Source: a virus
Taxonomy: Duplodnaviria; Caudoviricetes
Strand: one strand, 5' to 3'
Length of the DNA stretch: 46,806 nt
IMG/VR virus record: IMGVR_UViG_3300032287_002815
Coordinates: 1 to 46,806 of that record
Part shown: piece after piece, positions 7,671 through 31,231 of the stretch
Position numbering within the stretch: the stretch's first letter is position 1
Layout of the letters: each line of letters starts with the position of its first letter
Made by a program: the position numbers and the translations under genes
The notes under the pieces: generated by a model
Told to the model about the DNA's origin: nothing
Databases searched by the model: none
Seen by the model: the letters and a program-made list of their open reading frames with translations, nothing else

Positions 7671-9056
7671 ATGATGGAACTTCGACCTTACCAAGAACGT
7701 CTGGCAAACGATATCCGATGCGCCTTCGTGTCTGGGGCAAAACGGCCACTTGTAGTCAGCCCTACTGGATCCGGAAAGACAGTCCTCTTCAGCTACATCA
7801 CATCTCGGATCCTTCAGCGAGGCTCTCGGGTTGTTATCGTCGCCCACCGCCGCGAGATCCTCGATCAAATCAGTGCAACCCTGTCCAGAGTCTCGGTCCC
7901 GCACGGATTCATTCAAGCCGACAAACCCATGTCTAAGCAGCCCGCTATGGTTGCATCGATTCAAACTCTTCGTCGACGCCTGGATCAGATTGAGCAACCC
8001 GACCTGGTCATCATCGACGAGGCGCATCACTCAATCTCCAAGTCCTACGTGAATATGTTTGCTCACTGGCCTGATGCTTTGTTCATCGGCGTTACAGCGA
8101 CCCCTGAGCGCCTGGATGGCAGGGGCTTGGGCATCATGTTCGATCGCATGGTCATAGGGCCGACGGTTCAATGGCTCATTGACAATGGATTCCTCGCTCG
8201 ACCGGTCTACTACGCGCCCCGGGATGCCGTGGACCTCTCAGGTATCTCCAAGGTGGCCGGCGATTACAATCTCGGTGAGGCGGCCGAGGTAATCGACACT
8301 CCAAAAATAACCGGCGACGTGGTAACGCACTACCGGCGCTTTTGCCCAAATCAGCGAGCGGTGGCCTTCTGCATCTCCGTCGCTCACGCGCAGCACGTTG
8401 CGGCACAGTTTGAGGCTGCCGGCATACCGGCTGCATCGATTGACGGCCAGCTGGATGAGGAAACTCGCAAGAAGCGCGTGGAAGACCTGACGGCCGGCCG
8501 GATTCTGGTTCTGACCAGCTGCGAGTTGATCTCCGAGGGGTTCGATCTTCCCACGGTCAACGCGGCGATTCTTCTTCGCCCGACTATGTCGCTTTCGATG
8601 CACTTGCAGCAGCTGGGTCGCGCTCTCAGACCTTACCCCGGCAAGACCCGCGCCGTCATCCTCGATCACGTAGGGAACTGCCTACGTCACGGCCTGGCCG
8701 AGCAGGACCGCAAGTGGGACCTCAAAGGCCGCGTCAAACGAAACAAAAATTCCAAGCCCGTCGAAACCAAGCAGTGCTCGAAGTGCTTCGCGATCTTCGC
8801 CGGCACCGCCTGCCCGCAGTGCGGATCCGCACGTGAGATCGCTCCTCGGGAGATCGAAGAGGTCGATGGCGAGCTTCAGCGGCTGTCCATTGAGGACATC
8901 GCAAAGAAACGAGATGAACGCCGCGAGGAAGGAATGTGCAAAACCTTGGACGATTTTCGTTCCCTCGCAGCGAAACGTGGCTACAAACCGGGATGGGCAT
9001 ACTTCCGCTGGAAAGCTCGCTCGCGGAAGACCAGTCTCATCACCTCCATCCTGTAA
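7671..9056 (+). CDS. SF2 DEAD/DEAH-box helicase with C-terminal Zn ribbon
   Basis: ELRPYQ, SPTGSGKT, DEAHH, TATP, EGFD, QQLGRALR motifs; CSKC...CPQC. Confidence 0.93.
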   Translation: MMELRPYQERLANDIRCAFVSGAKRPLVVSPTGSGKTVLFSYITSRILQRGSRVVIVAHRREILDQISATLSRVSVPHGFIQADKPMSKQPAMVASIQTLRRRLDQIEQPDLVIIDEAHHSISKSYVNMFAHWPDALFIGVTATPERLDGRGLGIMFDRMVIGPTVQWLIDNGFLARPVYYAPRDAVDLSGISKVAGDYNLGEAAEVIDTPKITGDVVTHYRRFCPNQRAVAFCISVAHAQHVAAQFEAAGIPAASIDGQLDEETRKKRVEDLTAGRILVLTSCELISEGFDLPTVNAAILLRPTMSLSMHLQQLGRALRPYPGKTRAVILDHVGNCLRHGLAEQDRKWDLKGRVKRNKNSKPVETKQCSKCFAIFAGTACPQCGSAREIAPREIEEVDGELQRLSIEDIAKKRDERREEGMCKTLDDFRSLAAKRGYKPGWAYFRWKARSRKTSLITSIL

Positions 9057-9058
9057 CC

Positions 9059-9430
9059 ATGACCGAATCCGAACTCCAAGCCCTCATACTCAGGGCGGCC
9101 GGCTCCAAAACGCACGTCCGAGTCTTCCGTAACCAAGTGGGCGAGGGATACGTTGGCAAGGCTCTCCGAGATCCCGAAGGCGTCTTCCTGACCGATGCCC
9201 GCCACGTCCGCATGGGATTATTCCCGGGCTCTGGTGACCTGATCGGCTGGCGCACGGTTACAGTCACGTCCGACATGGTCGGAAAACCCATCGCCCAGTT
9301 TCTCTCCATTGAAGTCAAAACACCAACCGGTAAGGTCCGGCCCGATCAGCGCAACTGGGCCGATCAGATCAACGCCGCCGGCGGTCTCGCCATCATTGCA
9401 CGATCCGTTAGCGATACAGACAACCTATGA
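9059..9430 (+). CDS. VRR-NUC (PD-(D/E)xK) nuclease
   Basis: MTESELQ...FRNQVG...GSGDLIG...IEVKT...Q...GGLAIIARS pattern. Confidence 0.85.
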   Translation: MTESELQALILRAAGSKTHVRVFRNQVGEGYVGKALRDPEGVFLTDARHVRMGLFPGSGDLIGWRTVTVTSDMVGKPIAQFLSIEVKTPTGKVRPDQRNWADQINAAGGLAIIARSVSDTDNL

Positions 9431-9609
9431 GCGACACAGCGACTACAACCCAAGCCCTACTCCAAACAGCCCCCGAAAACCTCTCAGCGGAAGCCAAGTA
9501 CCGTTTCTACGAACGCCTCGGAATCCTGTGTGGCAACGCGGTAGCAACACCTGAACAACTCCGGATCGCGCAGCTGGAAGCGGTCGAGTACGATATGAAT
9601 CACGACTGA
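9427..9609 (+). CDS. Hypothetical protein, 60 aa
   Basis: ATGA-coupled to the VRR-NUC gene; YERLGI motif. Confidence 0.6.
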   Translation: MSDTATTTQALLQTAPENLSAEAKYRFYERLGILCGNAVATPEQLRIAQLEAVEYDMNHD

Positions 9610-9699
9610 AAGTGTCCCCTCTTTTGACTGCAAGTTAATGCACCCATTTCCGAGCAGTTGAAAGTGTCCCCTCTTTTCGCCCAAAGTGTCCCCTCTTTT
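9607..9699 (+). repeat. Three 17-bp direct repeats AAAGTGTCCCCTCTTTT (iteron-like)
   Basis: Exact copies at 9609-9625, 9661-9677 and 9683-9699 in an intergenic gap. Confidence 0.9.
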
Positions 9700-9703
9700 T
9701 CCT

Positions 9704-9952
9704 ATGACCCGTGATCAAATCGCAGACATCAATCCGGACCTCGTTGTCATGGACGGATTCGACGACTGCATCCTTGGGATCGGAACTCGATTCGGCAGTG
9801 AGCAATTCGTGATCTACGACTACGACAAAGTCATCACTCAGCTGGAATCCTACGGCATGACCTACGAAGAAGCCGTCGAATACCACGAATTCAACCAACT
9901 CGGCGCCTATGTGGGAGACCACACGCCAGCCTTTATGACAACCTCTCTCTAA
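9704..9952 (+). CDS. Conserved phage hypothetical protein (DGFDDCILG...EEAVEYHEFN..GAYVG..TP)
   Basis: Motif recalled as widespread in aquatic phages; ATG 9704. Confidence 0.75.
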   Translation: MTRDQIADINPDLVVMDGFDDCILGIGTRFGSEQFVIYDYDKVITQLESYGMTYEEAVEYHEFNQLGAYVGDHTPAFMTTSL

Positions 9953-14874: not shown

Positions 14875-15656
14875 GCCGCACGACGATCGAATGCGATGGG
14901 CTCGCGGCGTTCCTGAGCCCGGGACCGAGGCAGGCGCTGCCCGAACGCGATAGCAGCGAATCCGGCACGCTGGAATTCACCGGGACCAGATCCTACGGGG
15001 AAGCCGTCCGGATTATGCGCGAGGGGTGGCCAGAAGCTGCCGAACAGGCCCGGGCGCTGAGTGCTCAGCTGAACAGCGAGACGGCCGACAGCATGACGTG
15101 CGAGCGGCCGTCCCCCGTTTGGGACGTGGCCGGCGACGATGCCGACGTGGCGCGATATCTGGAAGGCGAGCCCGAGAATATGGTGGCTTGGATGCCTGAT
15201 CCGGTGCCGGCGGCGGGGCGGGTTGTGCGTCTGCTGTTGGGTGGCCGGGTGGCGTTTCACGTCACGGCCGAGATGATGCGCACGGCGGCCGTGATGCTGG
15301 CGGCAGCGGCCGATGCGCTGGAAGCCCGGGGCGTGCGGGTTGAAATCGTGGTCGCCTATGCCGTGTCGTGGGGAACAACCATGCTGGAAATCCGGCACCG
15401 CCTGAAAGCGGCCGAGGAGCCGCTGGACCTGCCCCGGGTTGTGGCCGGGATGCATCCGAGTGCGTTCCGCCGGGTGGCGTTCCGGTGGATGGAAACCGTG
15501 GCGGACCTGCCGGCCGGGTATGGTTGCGGCGGGACCATCACGACGGCCGAGGGGGACGTGGTCTTGAACATCGAAAAGCTCTCCGCGATCAAGCCCGAGG
15601 GCCGGGTGGCGTGGTTGAGGCAGCAAGCCGAGGCGGTGCTCGGGATCCCGGCCTGA
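14871..15656 (+). CDS. AAA-partner protein with a degenerate VWA-like domain
   Basis: GTGA-coupled to the ATPase; FTGTRSYGEA...GW, DVARYLEGEPENM, ADALEARGVRVEI, HPSAFRR motifs. Confidence 0.7.
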   Translation: MSRTTIECDGLAAFLSPGPRQALPERDSSESGTLEFTGTRSYGEAVRIMREGWPEAAEQARALSAQLNSETADSMTCERPSPVWDVAGDDADVARYLEGEPENMVAWMPDPVPAAGRVVRLLLGGRVAFHVTAEMMRTAAVMLAAAADALEARGVRVEIVVAYAVSWGTTMLEIRHRLKAAEEPLDLPRVVAGMHPSAFRRVAFRWMETVADLPAGYGCGGTITTAEGDVVLNIEKLSAIKPEGRVAWLRQQAEAVLGIPA

Positions 15657-15752
15657 GTAGAGCACGGCCGGCCCTTCGGGGCCTGCCCTCTCTGCCCAGA
15701 CGGGTTGACGGACGCCGGGCCGATCCCGGCGGGAAACACGACAGGAAAAACT

Positions 15753-16388
15753 ATGAAGACGACAGAACAGGACCCCCGCACGGTGCTAGCTAAGAGCCTC
15801 CGGATTGATCCAGCGGCGCGAACGATCACGCCGGCGGTGGACAGCTGGAATTCGGCGCTGGAATGGATCGGGGCGGACTTGCTCGAACGGGTGGGGTGCG
15901 GGGCCGGCGTTGACTGCTGGATTGACGAGGAAGGGATGCTCCGCGACGGGGCCGATCACTGGATTCTCGGGGGCGAGCAGCTGCTGGCCGGCCGGGCCGT
16001 CGTGGTGGGCGGCGTTGGTGGGGAGTGGACGGATTTACCGATCCCGACCGGAGTCGTTGCAGCGGCGGTGGGTTGGATCCCGAACGCGTTCAGGGCGCAG
16101 GCGCAGGAGATCGCGGACGGGATGCGGCCGGTGGCCGTGGCGTGGAACGCCGATGGGATGGCGCAGCTGGAGAAAATGAACCGCGAGCACGCCGGCCGGG
16201 TGGAATTGCTGGCCGTGGCGTCCGTGCAGGGAATGGAAATGCTAGCACTCGGGGACTGCGTGACCGGTCCGGACGGGATAACCGGGTTTGTCCAGGCGAT
16301 CAACGGGGACCGGGTGACGGTGCTGACGTTGGACGGGACGCCGGTATTTGACCGGACGGAGTTGGTGAAGGTTGAGGAAATCGACTGA
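15753..16388 (+). CDS. Early hypothetical protein (DUF3846-like, WIDEEG motif), 211 aa
   Basis: ATG 15753 after AGGAAAAACT; DCWIDEEGML...LAGRAVVVG. Confidence 0.65.
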   Translation: MKTTEQDPRTVLAKSLRIDPAARTITPAVDSWNSALEWIGADLLERVGCGAGVDCWIDEEGMLRDGADHWILGGEQLLAGRAVVVGGVGGEWTDLPIPTGVVAAAVGWIPNAFRAQAQEIADGMRPVAVAWNADGMAQLEKMNREHAGRVELLAVASVQGMEMLALGDCVTGPDGITGFVQAINGDRVTVLTLDGTPVFDRTELVKVEEID

Positions 16389-16452
16389 CCCGGCGGGGCC
16401 CTGAGTGACAGGCGGGGCCCCTGCGGATCGGTTGATCCAGAGACAACAAACT

Positions 16453-16731
16453 ATGAAAACACATAACAGCCCCGGCCCGTGGCATACCCAAGGATGCACG
16501 ATCTACGCCGGAAAGAACCGGGTCGCTCAAACATGGGACACGTGGTACGACGGCCTGCCGACGCCCACGATGGAAGCCGATGCGGGTTTGATCGCAGCTG
16601 CGCCGGAGATGCTAGCGGCTCTCCAAGCGGCCCTAGTCGCCGTCCGATACCTCGATGATCACGAAGGCGCTGAGGAGCTTATGAAGCAGGTGTGCGAGGC
16701 GATTATTAAGGCCAAGGGGGGTGTGAAGTGA
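16453..16731 (+). CDS. Phage hypothetical protein (PGPW...LIAAAPEML family), 92 aa
   Basis: Characteristic widespread phage motif; ATG 16453. Confidence 0.8.
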   Translation: MKTHNSPGPWHTQGCTIYAGKNRVAQTWDTWYDGLPTPTMEADAGLIAAAPEMLAALQAALVAVRYLDDHEGAEELMKQVCEAIIKAKGGVK

Positions 16732-16946
16732 AGTTCTACAGTACGCCGCAGCCGTTTGGTGAAACACCGAAACGCCGTGAGCCGATGACATATCCCAATC
16801 TTCAAGGGATGGCGTTACTTATCCGGTTGGAAAACGACTATACGGCATACCGCGAAAGCTGCGATCTCGGGTATTGCAAGGACGACCCTGAGGTTCACGC
16901 CAAGTTCGTTGCCGCCATCTCCAAGGCCGAGGGAGGTGCCCGATGA
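16728..16946 (+). CDS. Hypothetical protein, 72 aa
   Basis: GTGA/ATGA coupling at both ends. Confidence 0.65.
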   Translation: MKFYSTPQPFGETPKRREPMTYPNLQGMALLIRLENDYTAYRESCDLGYCKDDPEVHAKFVAAISKAEGGAR

Positions 16947-17224
16947 CCTCCACCCACGCCTTCCACGTCGCATTCGCAGCGGCTCAGCTATCCGCACGCA
17001 TCGAGTCCGGACAGATTGCAATCTCCGAGAAGATCGCAGCCGCCGCTGTCGGCATGGCTGACGCCGAGGCTGAAGGAATCGACTGGGGACAGGTGAATTT
17101 CGACGATGTGTGCGACCGAGTCGCAGAAATGATCCGAGGTCACCTTGTCCACTCAGACGCCGATCTGGAAGACCTGCGCCGGGATGCGGCCCAGATTGTC
17201 AGGAAGGAGGCTCGCCGTGCGTGA
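16943..17224 (+). CDS. Hypothetical protein, 93 aa
   Basis: ATGA coupling with a GGAGG upstream. Confidence 0.65.
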   Translation: MTSTHAFHVAFAAAQLSARIESGQIAISEKIAAAAVGMADAEAEGIDWGQVNFDDVCDRVAEMIRGHLVHSDADLEDLRRDAAQIVRKEARRA

Positions 17225-17456
17225 CCTGACAATCGAACGAGGCCGGGGAGCGACGTACCAGAGCGAACGCTGGACTGTCTACGAGCACGGGATCTACGGC
17301 CGTGACAGCGTGTTGTCTGACCAGAGTCGCCGCAGCTGGCTGGATGACTTCGACACGCTGGAAGAGGCCCAGAAGGCGTATCCAGATGCGGTCGTGTGCG
17401 CTGGCTCGACATACCATCCGCCGTGTCTGAACCACCTGCCCGGGGAGGATGAATGA
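17217..17456 (+). CDS. Phage early hypothetical protein (YGRDSVL...RRSWLDDFDTLEEA), 79 aa
   Basis: GTG 17217 after AAGGAGG; overlaps the previous stop. Confidence 0.65.
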   Translation: MRDLTIERGRGATYQSERWTVYEHGIYGRDSVLSDQSRRSWLDDFDTLEEAQKAYPDAVVCAGSTYHPPCLNHLPGEDE

Positions 17457-17716
17457 CCCTCGACGAAGCTCAACTATCGACCCGGCTGGCCATGCTCGTG
17501 GGGCCCGAGTCCGTTCGAGGCCCGGTGTTGTCGGCCTATGACGCGCTGCTTCTGGCCCGGGAAATCAGCAGGTGGGGTCGTGACCTCCCGGTCGGGGCCG
17601 AAGAGTTTCTGGCCGGTTGTCTGCGCCGTCGTGAGCGCCGGCTGACGAAGGATTCCGCCCGGGATCTGGTTGTGTTGGCCGTTGACTACTGCGGCAAGCG
17701 GATTACGGTTTACTGA
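17453..17716 (+). CDS. Hypothetical protein, 87 aa
   Basis: ATGA coupling after GGAGG. Confidence 0.55.
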   Translation: MTLDEAQLSTRLAMLVGPESVRGPVLSAYDALLLAREISRWGRDLPVGAEEFLAGCLRRRERRLTKDSARDLVVLAVDYCGKRITVY

Positions 17717-17722
17717 TTCACA

Positions 17723-17753
17723 AGGAGGGCTCCTTGCGGGGCCCTCTTTTCTT
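17723..17753 (+). terminator. Intrinsic terminator ending the early operon
   Basis: GAGGGCTCC-TTGC-GGGGCCCTC-TTTTCTT. Confidence 0.7.
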
Positions 17754-17757
17754 GCCT

Positions 17758-18120
17758 ATGAAACCTGAATTGCTAGCAGCACTGATCGCCGTGGAATCCG
17801 GCGGGAACGACATGGCGCGGGGCCGGCACGGCGAGCTTGGTGCTTTGCAGGTGCGCCCCTGCGTTGTGGCCGATGTGAACCGAGTCGTCGGGGCGCACTA
17901 CCGATGGTCTGAGATGACCAACCGGGCGACGGCCATCCGAGTCGCCGAGGCGTATCTCAACCACTGGGGATCACCGAGTCGTCTGGGGAGAAAACCGACT
18001 GATCGGGATCTGGCCATGATCTGGCACCATGGACCGAGAGGATGGAAGCAACGTGATGGCGCGTACTGGAAGAGAGTACGCAGCCGAGTCGTCTTGGGAA
18101 GAGTCGTCGCAGCGAAGTGA
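17758..18120 (+). CDS. Lysozyme-fold enzyme (SLT / i-type destabilase-like), probable endolysin
   Basis: ALIAVESGG (catalytic Glu), GALQV, IWHHGPRG, YWKRV motifs. Confidence 0.8.
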   Translation: MKPELLAALIAVESGGNDMARGRHGELGALQVRPCVVADVNRVVGAHYRWSEMTNRATAIRVAEAYLNHWGSPSRLGRKPTDRDLAMIWHHGPRGWKQRDGAYWKRVRSRVVLGRVVAAK

Positions 18121-18183
18121 CTCGGAGCACGGAGATCAGCGCGTCTGGTCTCCCTCTCCGCGCCAGTAACGCGGCATACTAAC

Positions 18184-18483
18184 ATGGAAAACGAAACACC
18201 AGTTCAACCTAGTGAGGTGCAGATCGCAGCCTCTACGCTCGGCCGACGTGGCCGTGGCAAAACGAAGACCATCACTGACGAAGATCGCCAGCGGCGTTCC
18301 GACCAGATGAAGGAGATCAACGAGAAGCGCCGAACGATCCGAGTTCAGGGCGTAGTCGTGAACAGCCCGGGTGGTAACACGCAGGTGAATCAGATTGTGA
18401 AGAAGATCGAGCCCGTGACTGACCCCCGAGTCGTCGCGGCGATCGGGCGCACCGTGCGTTCGCAGGGGAGGATCGTGCAATGA
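18184..18483 (+). CDS. Basic hypothetical protein, 99 aa
   Basis: AASTLGRRGRGK motif; ATG just after a -10-like CATACT. Confidence 0.65.
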   Translation: MENETPVQPSEVQIAASTLGRRGRGKTKTITDEDRQRRSDQMKEINEKRRTIRVQGVVVNSPGGNTQVNQIVKKIEPVTDPRVVAAIGRTVRSQGRIVQ

Positions 18484-18695
18484 AGCGCAAGGTCGTGATC
18501 GTGCTGGAGGATTCTGACGACGGGTTCTCCCGCCAGATGTACGTCGAGCCGCCGCTACCTGCGGATATGAACGAGACTCAGCCTACACCGGCATTGCTCT
18601 GCGCGATGGTTGTGCATCGAGCGATTCAGGCGTTCGTGGAAGCGGGGGAACCGGAGGAGAAACCCACGCAGGAGAAAGCCGATGACCAAAACTGA
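18480..18695 (+). CDS. Hypothetical protein, 71 aa
   Basis: ATGA coupling. Confidence 0.6.
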   Translation: MKRKVVIVLEDSDDGFSRQMYVEPPLPADMNETQPTPALLCAMVVHRAIQAFVEAGEPEEKPTQEKADDQN

Positions 18696-18984
18696 CCTGA
18701 TCCATGCGCTTGCTGAAGAGTGCGGTCTGCTGGTTCCTCACGCTCGGCAGATTGTCGATCGGATGTTCGACCTGATGATGGACGCGACCTTGGCCAGTGG
18801 GTTTGAGGTCAGGGGATTCGGCTTACTGGAGACTCGAATGACCAAGCCGATGATCGGACGGAACCCGCTGAAGCCCGATGTTGAGATCGTGATTCCGCCC
18901 CGGCCGAAGGTAGTATTCCGTCCGTCGAAAGAGTTCCGAGATCGGGCGATCAAAACACTTGCGGTTGGGGGTCGTAAAAAGTAG
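18682..18984 (+). CDS. HU/IHF-family DNA-binding protein, 100 aa
   Basis: MTKTDLI...EVRGFG...GRNP..P....IP....VVFRPSK signature. Confidence 0.88.
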   Translation: MTKTDLIHALAEECGLLVPHARQIVDRMFDLMMDATLASGFEVRGFGLLETRMTKPMIGRNPLKPDVEIVIPPRPKVVFRPSKEFRDRAIKTLAVGGRKK

Positions 18985-18987
18985 GAT
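18959..18987 (+). promoter_or_regulatory. Promoter for a short non-coding transcript
   Basis: TTGCGG-17-TAGGAT with no ORF before the terminator. Confidence 0.5.
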
Positions 18988-18993
18988 ACCACC

Positions 18994-19054
18994 GCTTGTA
19001 GTGCTGTTCATAGTTGTCGAGCCCCCTAGGATTGAGAGGTCCTAGGGGGTTTTT
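18994..19054 (+). ncRNA. Candidate ~60-nt antisense sRNA
   Basis: Promoter, then a single-stranded TTCATAGTTGTC seed, then a terminator. Confidence 0.45.
19022..19054 (+). terminator. Intrinsic terminator
   Basis: CCCCCTAGGA-TTGAGAGG-TCCTAGGGGG-TTTTT. Confidence 0.9.
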
Positions 19055-19149
19055 GTTGGTCACCCCTCCCGGCGTCCGACCGAGAGGGGCACAAGCCGAT
19101 ACCAGACCGATGGGTGGGAAAAACTATGAAACCACCCCGGCCACGTCGG

Positions 19150-19359
19150 TTACCCAAAAGTGGCTGATAGCACGCCTGGAACCTTGCGGAGGTTCGCCAG
19201 GAGCGCGTCAGGAGTCTGCGAGTTGGACACGCAGATGCCAATGAGATCCTTGCGAGCGCGGTCGCTGAGATCCTTGGTGTCGATTACGACCACCCGGTTA
19301 CCGGATAACGCGATCCGATGGATGCCGGTGGATTGCTTCGATGATGCGGGCGTCTTCAC
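19150..19359 (-). CDS. Hypothetical protein, ~69 aa
   Basis: Last ORF of the leftward operon; ends ...LRKVPGVLSATFG; start uncertain. Confidence 0.55.
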   Translation of the reverse strand: MKTPASSKQSTGIHRIALSGNRVVVIDTKDLSDRARKDLIGICVSNSQTPDALLANLRKVPGVLSATFG

Positions 19360-19501
19360 GGGTCATGGCTTGGTAACGTCTGGAGACCTGCTGGCAGTTC
19401 CAGCACGGCTCGCGGAAGCAGCCGCATCCGAGCCGCTCATACAGCTGGCGGGCTATCGCTTTGAATCTGGAGAGTTCGTCGTTTTCGTGGTTGGAGTCCA
19501 T
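19298..19501 (-). CDS. Small Cys-containing protein (CGC...CWNC), 67 aa
   Basis: ATG 19501; possible Zn-binding site. Confidence 0.5.
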   Translation of the reverse strand: MDSNHENDELSRFKAIARQLYERLGCGCFREPCWNCQQVSRRYQAMTREDARIIEAIHRHPSDRVIR

Positions 19502-19679
19502 CGTGGTGACGGTAGCGGTTGATGGTTGTGTAGGAGACATCGAGGATACGTGCTAGCTCGACATCGGTCACGTGCATCGGGGCGCCTTTGATTGCCAGTC
19601 GCTTCTCGATCGGGATGCGCGGTCGGCCTGATGGTTTGATGATGCCGAGGAGCTTCTTGATGCGGTGGATGAGGTTCAT
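19437..19679 (-). CDS. HTH DNA-binding protein, 80 aa
   Basis: GRPRI...TDVELARILDVSYTTINRYR helix-turn-helix. Confidence 0.7.
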   Translation of the reverse strand: MNLIHRIKKLLGIIKPSGRPRIPIEKRLAIKGAPMHVTDVELARILDVSYTTINRYRHHDGLQPRKRRTLQIQSDSPPAV

Positions 19680-20218
19680 TCGCAGCTGTAGATTTCGGTG
19701 GTGGTTTTGAGATCCGTCGGCCACTCGGGGGTGACGAAGGAGAGGTCGTGGAATAGGACTTTGTCCGTCGGCTGGATCGTGAGCCGGCCGTTGTCCAGCT
19801 GGATAAAGCAGAACTCCTTGGCCTGTTCGGGATACCGAGAGAAGCCGTCGTCGATGGGTGCGGCTGTGAAGAGGTACTGGCCTTTGCGAAGCAGGCTACC
19901 AGCCTTCGGTTCGGCGGTGACGCCGCGCAGATAGGCGTACTCGATGGTCGTGAACTCCCGGCCGTAGCAGTCCCACCGTTGCGCGTGCTCGATACGCCAG
20001 TCAGGTTCCGGGTTCTCATTGAATGCTAGCGCGTGCGGTGGCACCGCCCGGTAGACGGCCCCGCATTCGAGCATGATCGTGCAGCCCCAGGCGCGTCCAG
20101 GAATCGAGACCAATCCGAACCAGACGCAGGGCATGAGGCCGATTTTGTCGGAGATAAACGATGCATCGACGTAGCAGTATTGATGGTGTGGCAGCTGGCC
20201 AGATTGTGAGAAGGTCAT
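19676..20218 (-). CDS. Conserved phage hypothetical protein, 180 aa
   Basis: WFGL.S.PGR...LECGAVY...Q.WDCY...LDNG....QP motif; ATGA coupled at both ends. Confidence 0.8.
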   Translation of the reverse strand: MTFSQSGQLPHHQYCYVDASFISDKIGLMPCVWFGLVSIPGRAWGCTIMLECGAVYRAVPPHALAFNENPEPDWRIEHAQRWDCYGREFTTIEYAYLRGVTAEPKAGSLLRKGQYLFTAAPIDDGFSRYPEQAKEFCFIQLDNGRLTIQPTDKVLFHDLSFVTPEWPTDLKTTTEIYSCE

Positions 20219-23629: not shown

Positions 23630-26600
23630 TCAGAACGAATTTTTCAGATTTGTTCTGGCATTTCGGCGAATGCGGTCTGCGTTCTTGTCGATGAAGTCCG
23701 CTGCTTCGGTAGGCGGGAGTGCCAGCAGACGCTTGGAATTCTGCTCGATGAACTTGCGATAACCCTGACCAACGGCCCGTTGGTACGCGTATTTCTCTTC
23801 GCGGGTCATCTCGCGACGAGTGCCGTTCTCGTTGACCTTCACGGTGATGGCAGGCGTCGGCATGAACACGCCCCGGCTGGCGAGTTGGCCCAGTGTATTC
23901 CAGGCGGGATCCTCAGAGCGTTGAGTGACCCAACGGCTGTACGGATAGCGTTCAACGCGCACCGGTTCACCGAGCACGTTCAAGATCGGACCCGGCCCGA
24001 TTTCGCGACGGGCAAATGGCACCTGCTGAAGGAAGTATTCGTGACCCAGCCCACCCGGCTCAGCCTTGAAGATCGACGGATCAGACCACGCATCGACTTC
24101 CTTCAGGATGTTGGGCACGAACGATCCACCCAGACGCGCCAGATAACGCGGCGCTGACTTCTCGACGATCTCGTTGGTGTCGTACTTGTAAGCGTTGGCG
24201 AAGCCCAGGAACTCCGTGAGACCGGAGATTGCGGACGAATCCTTCACGATGAACAGGCCGGCCGTCGCTGCATCCTGAACCTTGGCGATGATCCCCTCCT
24301 GATTCCACTTCTCGGGCTCGAACAGCTGGCGATCGCGGAGTTCGCCAATGGCTCCCAGAAGACCACCGAAGCCCAGCTGGCGATAGGAGATGTAGGTATC
24401 ACCAACGCGGATCGAGTACGGCTGACGGCCTTCCGCTAGCAGCTGCTTGCGCTTGTTCGGATCGAGGGATTTGAACGACCCAGTAATGTCGATGTCACGA
24501 TCCTCTTCCTTGTCATCATCACCGAGGAACAGCGCCGCTGCTGTTGCGCCCAGCGCACTGCCAATCACAGCCTTGGCCCGCAAGAGATCGCGACGGGCCG
24601 GCGTGTATTGCAGGCCGCCGGGCTGGTCAGACTTGCCAGGTGCAGATTGAATCCAGCGATAAACCGCGATGGGGGCCGCGTAGTTGAGAAGCTCGTTGGT
24701 GTAGTTGGCGGCGAAGCGAACGAAGTTGGTTCCGGTCAGGAACTTCAGTGCGGGGAACTTCCGCGAAGCTGCATTCAATCCCTCGTACAGCGAGCCCATC
24801 ACGCCTTGAGGAACCTCGGTGAACGTAACGGCCTCGCGGATGTCCTTCGAGGTCATCAAGACATCGACCGGAAAGCTCTCCTGGAGAATCTCGCGGGTGC
24901 GCTTGTTCACCAAGTCGGGCCGTGTTCCTTCAGCAATGGCGCGATCGCGTGCGGCCTTTACTATGTCCGCTTCTGGAAGCATCAGGTTGCGTGCTTCTTC
25001 GGATCCGACCTCCTTGTTAAGCGCGTAAGCCTTTGCGGCTCCGTCAGACATCATGGCGGTCACATGATCCAATGCCAGCATCAAACGGCTCACGTACTTG
25101 GCTTGGCTCAGACCCTTGGCAAACAAGTTGCGCGATTCACCGAGGCCTTCGAGTGAGTTACCCGGCTGGTCAGGGTTGAAGTTGACGGAGCGGTAAAGCT
25201 CGCCACGCCAGAGCATGGGCCAGAAGTCGCGGATGCCTTCGTCGAGTCCTTTGAGTGCGGACTTCGTGATCAGGCCAGCTTCCTTGCCAGACAAGCCAGC
25301 CAGCATCACGGTGTTCAGCGCGCCATTGAGAATGTTGAGTGCGTTATCCAGCTGCGTCCGTGTGCCAGACAGCACAGCTGCATACCAGTAATCCCGCAGG
25401 ACATCGGAGAACCGCACGCCGCCTTCGCGGGCCATGAGGCGGAACATCTCCTGGATAATCTGGTTTCGATTGGTGCCCTGGGCAGCCTGCGCCCGTTGTG
25501 CTAGCTCGGTGAGCTTGCGAGCGGTAAGGCCGTTGATCTCGGCCACACCAAACTCAGGCGCCACTGCATCACGGAAAGCCTGTTCCCACAGAAGGAATGT
25601 GTCGGGGCCATCGGTGGTGACCTGCTCTCCAGGAGTAGCCCTGGCGATATTCGCGTACTTCAGGATGCGTGGCAGGGAACGGAAGAGTTTCTCCCGAGCA
25701 TCGGGCTTGACCGTCGGCAGCGGAACTTTCTTAGCAAACTCGGCTCGGAAAATCTGGTTCCGCTTGTTCTCCCAAGCAGTCGTCAGGAGGTTGGTGATCT
25801 CCGCGATGCCAGCAGGACTGAGGTTCTTCAGGCGAGGATCGGCGAGAATGACCTGGAGCATCTTCTGGCGGACAGAACCCTGAGTTTGCAGGGACTTCGT
25901 CAGTATCTCGCTCCATTTGATCTCGATTGGAGGACCTTTGGCTTCACCGGCAACCTGTTTGATCTTGCGGAACTCGCGGGCAAACACGTTGTCCGCTTCC
26001 TTCATGGCCTCTTTGACCTGATCAATCGCTTGCTGACCAGACTCGACGAGCCAGTCGCGCACCTGCGAAGCAGTGATCTCGGGGAACGGGATCTTGCGCT
26101 TCTGCTGCTCGTTTATCAGCCGGCGATAGACCAGCTGCGGAACCATCCACGCATAGCGAGCGAACGTCAGCTGGCGAGCGCGGCCCTGTTTGCCGAAGTC
26201 GGATCCCGCTTGAACCAATGCAGCCGCGATGCGCGCTTGCAGATTCAGCGCACGCAGGAGGTCTATCGGATTCTTGGCGCGTGCGACATCAAGTTCGGAT
26301 CGCTGAAGCAACTCGCCACCAACGTATTCACGCAGCGCCTTGTCGATGTCGGCGCCCATAAAACCCTGAAACGCCTGCTCCAGGTTACCCTTGTAGAAGT
26401 CCACCCACTTGCGGGCTTCGGCCTGCCAGTTCGCATCGGTGTCGCGAGTGACTTCACCACGGAAGATGCCCCGCGATTCAACACGTTCAGCAGGCGACGG
26501 CGGCTGCGGACGCTCAGGCGTGCCAGCAGGGATCTCCTGGTTCGGGAAAGCCTTGATGTGCTCCTCGAAGTTAGCAGCAGTCTCCGGCTCGTTATCCAGC

Positions 26601-29600
26601 TGGACGTGAGACTTAATGTAATCCATGCCAGCATCACGAGCGGCCACCCATGACTTGGTGGACTGATAGATACGCAGCGCGATCTTCGAGGCTTGATAAA
26701 CCACGAAGTTCGACAACGCAGCCACGGCCTCGAACGCCTTGCCACGGGGATCGGTGGCGGCGATTACCTTACCGAGAGCGGCCTCGACGGTGTCGGGGCG
26801 TTGATTGCGCTCAGCCTCAGCATCCAATCGGGAAATAAAGGTAATATCGGAGACAATGTCAGCAGTCGCAGTAGATTTGTTCGGAATGCTTTGTAGCCAT
26901 CGAACGTATTCTGGCGCAGCCTCATCCGAGATTGATTGCAGATCGGAGATAACATCTCCAAAGGTCGCTTGTTCTCCAGTCGATGGATTCGTAAATCGCA
27001 CCCGGCGAGTAGCTTCGTCGGTATCATTCCTAGCCCAATCGGACAGTCGCTTTCCGATTCCACGGTTTGAACCAGATACTCCGCGAATGTCAGCCGTGCT
27101 AGCTTGGAAACGCTGGCTCAACGGAACGACGTTGCCTTGATCGTCGCGGGTGACGGGATCAGCGGATTTGATCTGGGTGGGATCAAGGGCAATGCGGATG
27201 GTTTGAAGCTCCCTGTCTACAAAATCACCGCTGATTTCCACACCGTCATAACCTTGAGATTTCGCCCACCTTCGGAATGCGTCCACGCTCCCGTGGGCAT
27301 CTTTGACTTCTGAACGAAATGCTTCGAGTCCTCCGACGCCATCAAAGCGCAATGGATTCTGAAGACTGAGAAAAGCGCGTACAACCTTAGGTCCGTACAG
27401 TTTTTTGGCCGTAGCTGCGTTGTCTGTGAACCAACTTCCTACCGTATCAAGTTTGAGACCAACGCGATCTTTTGCAGCAGTAAGTCGGTCGAAGACCGTG
27501 AAGTTGCGACTGGTTCCGTGGTAACCTTCATTCCTGAATCCAGCGGTATAAGCCGCCTCATCAACCATCCGCTGAGCCTTAGCCATGTCGCCACTGGCAA
27601 CAGCAGCTGTGTATTCAGCATCTCGAATCAGTCGATCGGCCAACTGGATGTCGTCAGTAGGATCATTCGGAAACTGCTGTCTAGCCTGCGCGATCGCTTG
27701 ACGGATCGCCCGATCTACCGCAACGCCGGCTTGAATTAGGCCCTTGGCAATTTGCAGTGCTAGCTTCGCCAGCGGCGTTAGGAACAACGGGTCTGAGTAT
27801 TGGTTTTCGGAGAGGCCTTTGCTGACTTTGTCGATGGCGTCGATGGCAGATTGGGCCGCCGTCTTTCTCGGCCCAAATCCTTTCTGTCCAGCCGGCAAAC
27901 GACTCGGAGCGTTCGGGCCATACCGGGATGAAATCTCGCGACGAAGGTCTGATCGACGATCAAAGTTTGCGCGAGCCCTCAATGAAATTGGATCACTTCC
28001 TTTGAGGGTTTCCGAAGTCAACTCTGACCCACGACCTACTGCAATAAGCTCATCAGTGATGGCAGAGCTTTCGGCGTCCAAGCGATCCAACTCTTTGTTG
28101 ATCTCGCTGGCCGTCATGGTCGCGGGATCTTTGGTGGCTTTCTTGGCAGGAGCGGGCGCAGCTGGAGTTGTGGCCGGTCCCTCCGGCATTTTTTCGCCCA
28201 ACCTTACGGTCTTGTTCCATTCTTTCGCGTACTCGTAAAATTGTTGTTCAGTGATTTCACCTTCTCGCAATAGGCCTTCAACTTCATTGCGTGTTTTTTG
28301 AAGCAACTGTTCCTTTGTAAGACGCTTTCGTTGTCCTTGAATCTTGGCAAGTCCGGCTTCAGCGCGTTGTTGAATAGCGCCAAGTTTTTCAACACCAGTG
28401 GCCAATGCTGATCCAGCAGCTGGGCCTTCCGATGCGGCAATCCTCTCTTTGTACGCCGCAGACTGAGGATCATTTGCCGCATCCCAAGCCAGCACGGCGC
28501 GTTCTCGAAGCGCATCGCTAAGATTTGCTTGCGCTGCTTTTCGCTCTTCCGATTGACGCGTCCCATCGGCGAGTGATTGCTGTCCAGTCGGAGTGAGTTT
28601 CGGATTCTTGGCAGCAGTAAGAAGGCCCGAATCTTGAGCCTGCTTGATGAGTTCTGGTGTGAGATATTTCGGTTCGTAAGGCCTCTTTGAAGCGCGATTA
28701 GCAAGTGCCTGAAGAGTGTAAAAAATCTGCGGAGGCCGGGGCGGCAAAGATGGATTTGTGCGAACCTGTGTGACCGCCATGTCAGCGGCCGCTTCACGAC
28801 TTGGAGCGGCAGCAAAATCTGCATCCGTGTATCCACGGGTGGGGGTTGCAGGAGCCGGTCCAACTGGTGCAGGTGCAGGAGCGCCAGCAGGCCTAGGCGC
28901 CTGACCAGCCATCGCTTCCTGCTTGTCGCGCAGAATAAAACCTTCGTCCGAAGGATTGCCTGTCACTTGAGATTTCTCACGCAACAGAAACTGGTCGGTT
29001 TCTTGAAGGCCACCAGAACGGGTACGTAGAACCAGCCTTTGTCCAGGGGCTAGTTTTTTGATCTCATACAAACCCTTGCCAACGGCTGTAGCCTTAGCCT
29101 TAAGCGTTTGAAACAGCTTGTTGATTCGTGCCGGGGTATACTCAGGAACAGGTGCAGGGGCCGGGGCGGGTGCGGGGGCCGGGGCGGGTGCGGGGGTCGG
29201 AGTGGGCGCAGGGGTAGGCGTAACCTTCACCTCGGGCATCGAAATCGTCACCACCGGCACAGTCAACGTGGCTGGCTTCTGAGAAGTTCCGCCCTTAGTT
29301 TGGGATGCTAGCTTCTTGAGTTCAGCGCGAACCTGAAGACCGTGTTTGCGGACTTCTTCGGGAGTTAGCCCAGAGACTCCGACCGCCCAGTTTAAGTAAT
29401 CCGCGTCACGCTTAGACGGATTCTTCTGAGTGACAATGAACGCTGCACGATCGAAATCGCTGCCAAATGTCGGCAGATACGCATCCATCGAGACGTTGTA
29501 GCGCGGCTTGGCGCCAGCAAGATCCTTGGGGAGCTTCGCGGATTGGACAGCTGGAGTGACAGGGGTAGGAGCGGGTGTAGGCGCAGGCGCCGGAACCGCC

Positions 29601-31231
29601 TCCGCCTTTACTTGCTGTACTTCTTCCGGGGTGACTTCGGCTTCGGCCCCTCCGACTTCGGCAGGCCGCCCTCCTTGATCCACTTGTCGCAGTCCTACTT
29701 CGACTGGGGGTTGCGGTTCTTCTCGGCGTAGCACGCCTTCATCTGGGCCTTGTTTTTGAACGGCACTGGGTGTGGGGGTTGGGGCTTGTGTTGCAGCCGG
29801 CTCGGTGCCCAAGCGGGCGCGATAGGCCGCGAGAGTGATAGCACCTTCCTCGCTCAGGAGTCCGGCGTCCTCGGCCGTGATCAACTGGTCGAGTTCGTCC
29901 TGCTCGTCGGGAGTCAGGCCGGTCTCGGTATCGACAGGTGCGGCGGGTGTGGGGGCGGGCTCAGGTGTGACTGGCGCGGGCTGGGCGGGAGTCACGACAG
30001 CCTGCGGTGCCGGCGCGGGTGCGGGTGCCTGCTCCTCCGGCATCGGAATCCCAGCCTCCTGGGACATCCGAAGAACATCCTCCGCAGTGATCTCGGGTTC
30101 GATTTCGATCGGGCCGGTGGGTTGAGCACCATCCTCGATGCCGGACACGGTGGCCGCAGAACGGGGCAACGGGTTGGCAGGATCAGCGCCCGTGGCTTCA
30201 GCGACTGCATTTGCAGTGGCGAGATTCGGATTCCGCTCGGAACCAACGACGCCACCGACCAGTCCACCAGTCGCAGCACCGATGAAACCAGCCTGAGCGA
30301 CACCATCCATGATGCCGCGCTCGGGATCGTATGTGACCTTGGCAGCCATGTTGCCCATGGTCTGCTCGAGAGATTCTTGGAGACCCTCGGTGACAGCGCC
30401 TTCTACGCCGCCTCGGATCATGTTCTGAGTGCGGACGCTAGCAGCCTTTGGAACCAGTCTCTCAGCCAAGCGCTCGCCAACGCCGCCGATGGATTTGCGT
30501 CCGTATCGCAGTTTGCCAGCAAGACCTAACGTGCCTTCCGAAACGGCACCGATAGGAGCATTCAGCGCGAATGCTTGGGATTCCAGTTGTGATGCTTGAG
30601 CCTGAAGATCGTTGGCGCCCTGCGTGTCACCCGCAGCCAATCGCTCGGCAATGCGTCGGTTGATTACGCGACGGGCATCTTCGGCTCCAGCTTCACCTGC
30701 TGAGAAGCCGTAGAGAGCGCCGGCGCCGACGGGTCCAGCAATCAACGCACCTGGAAGCACGGACAGCGTGCTACCGATGCCTCCAGAGATTTGAGCCGGA
30801 ATGGTTTCTTGAACCCCTGGCAGCGAAGGCATTGCCTCGCCGGCTGAAATCAAACTCTCGCCAGCTGCGGTCACCGGGCTTCGAGCCGCCATCTGTCGCT
30901 GCTCTTGAACCGTTGATTCAGTGAATGGATCGCCCGACTCAAAGACCCGTGCGAAGCCTTTCGCCGCTTGGCCGAGACCGCTCAATGCAGCCTTCGGTAA
31001 TTCCGCAATTTGTCCGCCCAGCGTCTCCAGCGTACCGTACTCGCCGGCACGGTATTTCGCTGCCTCGAGTTGGGCGGTCTCGTCAGCCATTTCCTGCTGA
31101 CGGCGCTGAATCAGGTTCTGGCGGATCTGGTTCCGATTCTGCTTAACAAAGTCGAAGACCTGATCCTGAGTGTAATCTTCAGGGAAGACTACAGTTCCAA
31201 GTTCCGTTCCAAAATCGACTTCGATGGGCAT
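23630..31231 (-). CDS. Large polyvalent internal virion/injection protein, 2533 aa, with an ART-PolyVal-like domain
   Basis: Last gene of the tail/injection operon; Gly/Ala membrane-like N-terminus, Pro/Ala linkers, YHGT..F..F...G.WFT...NPL...GYDG...QIKS domain, LPD38-like QPYSIRVGD.YISY C-terminus. Confidence 0.85.
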   Translation of the reverse strand: MPIEVDFGTELGTVVFPEDYTQDQVFDFVKQNRNQIRQNLIQRRQQEMADETAQLEAAKYRAGEYGTLETLGGQIAELPKAALSGLGQAAKGFARVFESGDPFTESTVQEQRQMAARSPVTAAGESLISAGEAMPSLPGVQETIPAQISGGIGSTLSVLPGALIAGPVGAGALYGFSAGEAGAEDARRVINRRIAERLAAGDTQGANDLQAQASQLESQAFALNAPIGAVSEGTLGLAGKLRYGRKSIGGVGERLAERLVPKAASVRTQNMIRGGVEGAVTEGLQESLEQTMGNMAAKVTYDPERGIMDGVAQAGFIGAATGGLVGGVVGSERNPNLATANAVAEATGADPANPLPRSAATVSGIEDGAQPTGPIEIEPEITAEDVLRMSQEAGIPMPEEQAPAPAPAPQAVVTPAQPAPVTPEPAPTPAAPVDTETGLTPDEQDELDQLITAEDAGLLSEEGAITLAAYRARLGTEPAATQAPTPTPSAVQKQGPDEGVLRREEPQPPVEVGLRQVDQGGRPAEVGGAEAEVTPEEVQQVKAEAVPAPAPTPAPTPVTPAVQSAKLPKDLAGAKPRYNVSMDAYLPTFGSDFDRAAFIVTQKNPSKRDADYLNWAVGVSGLTPEEVRKHGLQVRAELKKLASQTKGGTSQKPATLTVPVVTISMPEVKVTPTPAPTPTPAPAPAPAPAPAPAPVPEYTPARINKLFQTLKAKATAVGKGLYEIKKLAPGQRLVLRTRSGGLQETDQFLLREKSQVTGNPSDEGFILRDKQEAMAGQAPRPAGAPAPAPVGPAPATPTRGYTDADFAAAPSREAAADMAVTQVRTNPSLPPRPPQIFYTLQALANRASKRPYEPKYLTPELIKQAQDSGLLTAAKNPKLTPTGQQSLADGTRQSEERKAAQANLSDALRERAVLAWDAANDPQSAAYKERIAASEGPAAGSALATGVEKLGAIQQRAEAGLAKIQGQRKRLTKEQLLQKTRNEVEGLLREGEITEQQFYEYAKEWNKTVRLGEKMPEGPATTPAAPAPAKKATKDPATMTASEINKELDRLDAESSAITDELIAVGRGSELTSETLKGSDPISLRARANFDRRSDLRREISSRYGPNAPSRLPAGQKGFGPRKTAAQSAIDAIDKVSKGLSENQYSDPLFLTPLAKLALQIAKGLIQAGVAVDRAIRQAIAQARQQFPNDPTDDIQLADRLIRDAEYTAAVASGDMAKAQRMVDEAAYTAGFRNEGYHGTSRNFTVFDRLTAAKDRVGLKLDTVGSWFTDNAATAKKLYGPKVVRAFLSLQNPLRFDGVGGLEAFRSEVKDAHGSVDAFRRWAKSQGYDGVEISGDFVDRELQTIRIALDPTQIKSADPVTRDDQGNVVPLSQRFQASTADIRGVSGSNRGIGKRLSDWARNDTDEATRRVRFTNPSTGEQATFGDVISDLQSISDEAAPEYVRWLQSIPNKSTATADIVSDITFISRLDAEAERNQRPDTVEAALGKVIAATDPRGKAFEAVAALSNFVVYQASKIALRIYQSTKSWVAARDAGMDYIKSHVQLDNEPETAANFEEHIKAFPNQEIPAGTPERPQPPSPAERVESRGIFRGEVTRDTDANWQAEARKWVDFYKGNLEQAFQGFMGADIDKALREYVGGELLQRSELDVARAKNPIDLLRALNLQARIAAALVQAGSDFGKQGRARQLTFARYAWMVPQLVYRRLINEQQKRKIPFPEITASQVRDWLVESGQQAIDQVKEAMKEADNVFAREFRKIKQVAGEAKGPPIEIKWSEILTKSLQTQGSVRQKMLQVILADPRLKNLSPAGIAEITNLLTTAWENKRNQIFRAEFAKKVPLPTVKPDAREKLFRSLPRILKYANIARATPGEQVTTDGPDTFLLWEQAFRDAVAPEFGVAEINGLTARKLTELAQRAQAAQGTNRNQIIQEMFRLMAREGGVRFSDVLRDYWYAAVLSGTRTQLDNALNILNGALNTVMLAGLSGKEAGLITKSALKGLDEGIRDFWPMLWRGELYRSVNFNPDQPGNSLEGLGESRNLFAKGLSQAKYVSRLMLALDHVTAMMSDGAAKAYALNKEVGSEEARNLMLPEADIVKAARDRAIAEGTRPDLVNKRTREILQESFPVDVLMTSKDIREAVTFTEVPQGVMGSLYEGLNAASRKFPALKFLTGTNFVRFAANYTNELLNYAAPIAVYRWIQSAPGKSDQPGGLQYTPARRDLLRAKAVIGSALGATAAALFLGDDDKEEDRDIDITGSFKSLDPNKRKQLLAEGRQPYSIRVGDTYISYRQLGFGGLLGAIGELRDRQLFEPEKWNQEGIIAKVQDAATAGLFIVKDSSAISGLTEFLGFANAYKYDTNEIVEKSAPRYLARLGGSFVPNILKEVDAWSDPSIFKAEPGGLGHEYFLQQVPFARREIGPGPILNVLGEPVRVERYPYSRWVTQRSEDPAWNTLGQLASRGVFMPTPAITVKVNENGTRREMTREEKYAYQRAVGQGYRKFIEQNSKRLLALPPTEAADFIDKNADRIRRNARTNLKNSF

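Follow-up and report, generated by a model that had tools for sequence, protein, structure and literature searches.

A recurrent, predicted three-way RNA element behind a leftward phage operon, with a variable loop that may pair with early gene starts

The window, that is, the whole stretch of DNA analyzed here (46,806 nucleotides, 46.8 kb), represents a complete phage record in which a 123-nt terminal repeat is present. Its rightward region carries genes for an AAA ATPase, a DUF7192 protein, a DUF3846-like protein, an SLT-domain protein and HU, together with small genes. The long leftward region, which terminates at 19150, carries small genes and those for a 2533-aa ART-PolyVal protein, RecT and a DUF3799 nuclease. 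The rightward and leftward units converge on a 165-nt gap, which is the site of the element described below (Table 1). The plus-strand site at 19019–19052 is the only terminator call in this gap, and no minus-strand intrinsic terminator (GC hairpin plus U-tract) was found there. RNA contigs of relatives stop near 19000. No match was obtained when 15600–20100 was compared with an annotated phage collection. The 2533-aa protein is encoded at 23630–31231 on the minus strand, and its ART-PolyVal domain comprises residues 1237–1358. Three copies of a 17–19-nt repeat (AAAGTGTCCCCTCTTTT) lie between replication-region genes at 9607–9700 and are possible origin or operator sites.

Table 1. Coordinates of the element, its parts and neighboring features in the window, and the distant copies.
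Feature	Position	Strand	Basis or remark
Whole element, predicted three-way RNA	19058..19154	-	Fold; single copy by covariance model
Arm 1, long irregular stem with conserved core	19096..19149	-	Covariation, 19 sequences
Arm 1 apical loop UUUCAUAGUUUUUC, 14 nt	19118..19131	-	Complementary to 15745-15758; variable among relatives
Arm 2, hairpin of 12 bp, three of them G-U, with a 5-nt loop	19062..19090	-	Fold; compensatory changes in relatives
Last gene of the leftward unit, 69 aa, no family	19150..19359	-	Unit also carries RecT and the DUF3799 nuclease
Intrinsic terminator of the rightward HU-containing unit	19019..19058	+	Borders the element; minus strand without U-tract
U/G-rich segment of the HU 3' region (other sRNA seed of the sequence-only reading)	19007..19019	+	Also complementary to AACUAUGAA
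Predicted target: A-rich leader, weak Shine-Dalgarno-like AGGA, start codon	15744..15758	+	Best genome-wide loop partner
Start of a 92-aa cassette gene (at 16453), a second candidate target	16448..16458	+	11-nt exact match, -11.1 kcal/mol
Distant copies: L176/L208, L254, L249, L258, L263, L264, L279, L314, L315, L324, L371, L385			

Two types of structured leader recur before early-region genes, at 15655–15755 and 16385–16455 in the window and also in records G001–G010. They begin with AGAGCACGG or GACCCGGCG, and both finish in an A-rich start. The genes behind both types differ among relatives, in the manner of exchangeable cassettes, and neither leader type has an Rfam match. Ahead of the HU terminator (18985–19058), nearly every relative read, even where the element is missing, retains the segment CCGCTTGTAG and a GTTGT motif, and the anti-AUG seed between the two varies.

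The element (19058–19154) sits directly behind the last leftward gene and overlaps its stop codon. A covariance model scores it at 80.9 bits in this genome, the next match reaching 11.9 bits. A sequence-only reading of this DNA had placed a hairpin loop with a start-codon match in the gap, and the minus-strand fold bears it out: positions 19137–19132 pair with 19117–19112 and enclose a loop at 19131–19118 with an unpaired probability of 0.98. Thirteen of the 14 matched bases lie inside this loop, and one is the closing stem base. The second GC-rich hairpin of that reading is likewise recovered by folding, as a 12-bp hairpin at 19090–19062. Both hairpins are real; what was missed is that they form the arms of one recurrent three-way RNA, in which the stem, not the loop, is conserved. 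Arm 1 is built, from its base, of a 4-bp helix, an internal loop, a 5-bp helix, a 2-nt bulge and a 6-bp upper helix. When copies are folded with the core forced, a third stem closes around both arms in 12 of 20, namely 9 of 10 distant copies vs 3 of 10 from the window's phage group; in the window itself, this closing stem has 3 bp only. The folding z-score of the minus strand is −2.1, and such z-scores are by themselves modest. The arm-2 loop (19074–19079, minus strand) contains GGA throughout the window's phage group; most of the distant copies have instead a CUC bulge, located on the 3' side of arm 2.

The element does not correspond to an annotated RNA family in the searches made. ARAGORN reported no tRNA or tmRNA gene in the window, and Rfam gave no match at gathering score either in the window or in 12 loci. 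At E values up to 1, only a neighboring tRNA was matched, in five loci, with the element itself unmatched. Five weak Rfam hits fall in the gap, and RF01695 is not among them. Likenesses to group II intron domain 5, HDV, the hairpin ribozyme, a T-arm, CsrA sites and Y RNA were considered and dropped for want of tool support.

Relatives were collected by protein and pattern searches. In an alignment of 19 sequences, 91% of the arm 1 cells are paired, and 7 of the 15 pairs show two-sided changes. None of 500 shuffles reached any of five covariation measures, in a control that takes no account of kinship, and slid registers pair in 31–53% of cells. Both hairpins carry compensatory and G–U changes in the relatives that are workable only on the minus strand. 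Pairs that are G–U rather than A–C identify the minus strand as the one that would fold, and the proposal that a minus-strand transcript would display the loop is backed by covariation and wobble pairs alike.

The stem also recurs without the neighboring genes, in 12 further copies from 11 unrelated phage or prophage-like records. The records bearing the motif include 46-kb, Mu-like, 70–90 kb and 199-kb ones, and several are tied to Verrucomicrobia assemblies; as three of the later-found copies come from such assemblies, Verrucomicrobia is a reasonable guess for the host and only that. In eight of the 12 distant copies, the flanking genes are encoded on the same strand as the motif. Among their sites are the interval between RecT and an exonuclease (L385), a position before an exonuclease, and one before a head protease (L264). 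The core bases are constant across the unrelated records, an invariance that is inflated and partly built in because members were found by exact patterns on those very bases, and the loops range from 4 to 28 nt, some being hairpins themselves. Judged from these sequence comparisons, the RNA scaffold is real by covariation and recurrent in unrelated phages.

Some observations on individual copies are recorded here. One Verrucomicrobiales assembly (record G013) holds two copies with different loops, L258 and L263, each followed by a similar terminator-like hairpin; one of them is about 500 nt from a tRNA gene. In record G012, a second large folded region lies about 200 nt upstream of the L254 motif and contains GACCCGGCGG and AGTGACA, both of which also occur in the second leader type of the window. 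Further upstream in G012 is a run of small paralogous genes whose products begin with MIPE.

Within the family, 26 loci have a readable region downstream of the last gene; 9 of these lack the element, with a clean break at the stop codon. The six element-less loci that could be placed on the tree form one clade, so the absence probably reflects a single event. Of 79 pattern matches in metagenomes, 41 were unrelated sequences without the structure. Later pattern scans, with 100 loci scored, returned two known copies, two new ones and two borderline cases (L465 and L397), which were not counted. A model search of 151 genomes of one host phylum produced two matches, a known copy and a probable coding chance; it scored 36 candidates per genome out of several hundred to three thousand and is silent on absence.

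A small part of the region is represented in twelve RNA-library runs. In all four RNA runs examined, the element is covered by contigs of related strains, although these data are strandless and DNA carry-over is possible, and one RNA-library contig is identical to the window over 19029–19179. The depth of the element lies below that of the HU unit in the three runs that cover the HU unit. The near-zero contig cover of 15000–17575 is uninformative since relatives differ there.

The 14-mer GGAAAAACTATGAA occurs exactly twice in the genome, at 15744 and 19117, as the sequence-only reading had stated. Under Markov models of orders 0–4, about 1e-4 further copies are expected for a given 14-mer. The genome contains 39 exact repeats of at least 14 nt besides the terminal repeat, where simulation predicts 12–21, so that such a repeat alone is not rare. 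The unusual feature of the 14-mer is its position at a start codon, not its repetition. None of 2000 loop shuffles equalled the 14-nt match against start-codon windows, and the energy of the loop–start duplex was equalled by 1 of 150 shuffles and, separately, by 0 of 200. No window of the genome pairs better with the loop than the DUF3846-like start, at −18.6 kcal/mol, and 15744–15758 is predicted to be open, with a mean unpaired probability of 0.81. The gene behind it (15753–16388, plus strand) encodes 211 residues. Its start region is indeed the site matched; its assignment goes as far as DUF3846-like, the Pfam score being 21.6 bits against a cut-off of 27.5.

We propose that the minus strand of 19058–19154 encodes an RNA of about 95 nt with a predicted three-way junction, and that the exposed loop of this RNA probably base-pairs with start-codon regions of early cassette genes in the same phage and blocks their translation. 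Transcription of the long leftward unit, with its virion-type, RecT and nuclease genes, would yield the RNA as a 3' tail, which would then be released or protected by processing. The invariant irregular helix may provide a handle for a protein or nuclease, and pairing would silence early genes at a later stage of infection. In this scheme, the loop would serve as a swappable targeting module, one that has degenerated in certain lineages. This proposal starts from the sequence itself, the covarying stem, its recurrence, the exact 14-nt complement and one reciprocal loop/target change. A c4-like phage RNA of this kind, with a fixed scaffold and a variable targeting loop and outside the C4 family proper, seems to us a real possibility that falls somewhat short of an even chance.

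The main rival, which we rate only slightly lower, is that the conserved irregular stem does the work between or behind phage genes, as a protein-binding, processing or stabilizing signal, an RNA-polymerase-modifying element or a small ribozyme, and that the loop is an accessory. The likeness of the loop to a start codon would then be one captured or U-rich sequence inherited within a phage group. The constancy of the core bases beside such variable loops fits this explanation, as do copies placed between co-directional genes, such as L385 and L264. Strict nucleotide conservation is, in the available part of PMC5737381, typical of ligand-binding or catalytic cores and not of antisense RNAs. 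RNA contigs that run unbroken through the element speak against it weakly, given possible DNA carry-over.

Half of the 40 distinct family rows (20) retain an intact anti-AUG triplet. Among them are all seven rows from the deep clade, in which the flanks around the triplet differ (complements of AUGAGA, AUGACA, AUGGAA and AUGAAA). The remaining rows pair through G–U (2/40), carry a central mismatch (4/40), are of an ACG type without the anti-AUG (12/40) or have a four-base loop (2/40). Record G002, a distant relative, has a changed start in its orthologous DUF3846-like gene, and each loop favors its own start (−18.6 vs −13.6 and −15.7 vs −12.7 kcal/mol); the reciprocal change of loop and target is seen in one pair, G000/G002. 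Of 111 candidate starts in G002, those of its three cassette genes rank highest. G003 and G006 have exactly the window's start, GGAAAAACTATGAAG, but their loop has changed and pairs only at −9.0 kcal/mol, which is at shuffle level (231/1000 and 590/1000). The expectation that loop and target change together finds support in G002 and fails in one large group, to which G003 and G006 belong. G001 has retained CAU, yet has no good partner in its own genome.

Statistical tests of the loops gave a similarly divided result. When cassette starts only are considered, four of eight records beat shuffles (0, 1, 9 and 34 of 1000), three of these four being close kin. A single start rule applied genome-wide is significant in 1 of 11 records, for the window's own loop, and four others reach 14–16/150. 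With an automated start list, one of nine records, again the window, is significant; this list misses several cassette starts, and the 11-record test is the fairer version. Anti-start pairing, as first proposed from the letters, is supported in the window and a minority of relatives; most other records show no significant pairing. In record G170, small genes upstream of the L506 motif (7700–9900, motif strand) share an A-rich leader, and the best of 45 starts for the L506 loop is one of these genes, only at 16/150 shuffles.

Among nine more distant records, 14 of 16 loop tests were not significant; the partners of prophage-like copies were sought within their own contigs. The loop of one distant copy (G167) matches 12 nt just upstream of a gene start of its own (10/2000 shuffles), and the arm-2 loop of another (G011) matches 10 nt of its own ribosome-binding site (0/100). 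CAU is present in 6 of the 12 distant loops against a shuffle mean of 2.4 (p 0.016), an excess that is lost in a screen of all 64 triplets, where TTC and GTT rank higher. Loops that are lost or off-target in many relatives agree with a working stem and an accessory loop. That explanation does not account for the reciprocal change in G002, for a CAU that persists in the deep clade although its flanks vary, or for the two distant matches at gene starts. For the window's lineage, an antisense role is plausible, unproven and not universal.

A very improbable alternative places the pairing in cis: the loop would pair with a same-strand copy of AACUAUGAA at 19015–19007, and leftward read-through transcripts would control their own termination or processing. 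The model here is the CI system of phage P4. This complement of 9 bp lies about 100 nt downstream on the same strand, loop and site share an ACU-to-ACA change in G002, and the gap has no intrinsic terminator on the minus strand. The pairing is, however, no better than that of shuffled loops in the window (39/100). Over 19 copies, 4 of 38 flank tests are at 4/100 or lower, with no site in common, and the frame that opens at 19011 on the minus strand can be as short as 20 or as long as 140 codons. Action of the structure as single-stranded DNA, a replication or recombination signal, is very improbable. The window copy and two distant ones do lie in operons with RecT or exonuclease genes, but many G–U type pairs are retained on one strand only, and the orientation matches transcription of the flanking genes in the eight of 12 distant copies noted above.

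The least credible view, highly improbable to us, gives the role to the plus-strand copy, as a decoy for the plus-strand seed or as the start of the 13-codon ORF or of a deleted gene: a read-through transcript could pair seed and copy, the copy at 19117 resembles a cassette start, and the 13-codon frame is confirmed, opened by an ATG at 19126, but 18 of 40 rows have other bases in place of this ATG and 2 have lost it by deletion, the frame measures 13 vs 39 codons, the stems hold A–C mismatches when read on the plus strand, pairing on that strand is disrupted by two transition variants that keep G–U pairs on the minus strand, a strong terminator lies just upstream, and the site lacks either cassette leader type. 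Neither the decoy, an alternative in the sequence-only reading, nor the deleted-gene remnant, which that reading named as a refuting case, is supported. The plus-strand seed behind HU is retained in near relatives and in some ACG-type phages and is replaced elsewhere. The two-strand locus envisaged from the sequence would therefore apply to part of the family only, as a lineage-limited arrangement.

Whatever its role, the element is a new object, since it has a covarying scaffold, recurs in unrelated phages and belongs to no Rfam family. If the loop is a targeting module, the RNA would be a simple off-switch for early phage genes, and the natural loop variants (intact, wobble, mismatched, deleted and absent) make targeting directly testable. 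If the core does the work, it would suggest that phages of little-studied hosts possess an unknown RNA–protein interaction or catalytic motif. The broadest form of the proposal, an undescribed RNA family across very different phages in which one fixed protein-binding scaffold carries exchangeable loops aimed at translation starts, appears rather unlikely to us. Such a family would constitute a naturally reprogrammable silencer of the phage's own early cassette genes, and perhaps also of host or rival-phage mRNAs sharing the A-rich AUG context.

Four known systems offer points of comparison. The CI RNA of P4 has a branched fold, pairs with phage transcripts through its single-stranded parts and acts on sites in its own leader. 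The branched fold is alike; however, cis pairing of the present element is not significant, and it has no Rfam match. Trans-acting sRNAs derived from 3'-UTRs use U/G-rich seeds, and those of the GcvB type target A/C-rich leaders. The element resembles the latter in its proposed origin at an operon tail and in a U-rich seed complementary to A-rich starts, but it holds the seed in a closed loop of a conserved three-way scaffold and lacks an intrinsic terminator of its own. The viral structured RNA candidates reported by Fremin et al. 2023 (PMC10690425) are, as far as the available text indicates, the same kind of object from the same type of data (IMG/VR contigs). The core motifs of the element were not found in six supplementary files of that work, a partial sample of its supplements. 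Full-text literature, to the extent accessible, yielded general or C4 papers only and no description of the three-way motif. The motif is thus apparently undescribed, and a listing among the remaining supplements of PMC10690425 is possible.

The fourth system is the c4 antisense RNA of phages P1 and P7 (RF01695). As described in PMC5320573 and PMC12197685, this small RNA has three stems; its frame is conserved, its variable loops pair with ribosome-binding regions of the phage's own mRNA, and it is cut from a longer transcript; further C4 sources are a table row in PMC2864571 and, in part, PMC5737381. Maturation of its 5' end by RNase P is another feature of c4. The element shares with it the three-stem design, conserved frame and variable loops, and cutting from a longer transcript would be a further likeness. 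Conversely, the RF01695 covariance model gives no match at E up to 10 in the element's own genome. C4 targets the adjacent antirepressor (icd/ant) leader in the same transcript, whereas the element has no significant cis site: the start with which its loop is predicted to pair belongs to an early cassette gene instead of an antirepressor leader, and is encoded at a distance of 3.3 kb on the opposite strand. Unlike in c4, one loop of the element covers the AUG itself. Since it fails both the family model and the cis-target feature, the element is not a C4 member. C4 of P1/P7 is nonetheless the closest described system.
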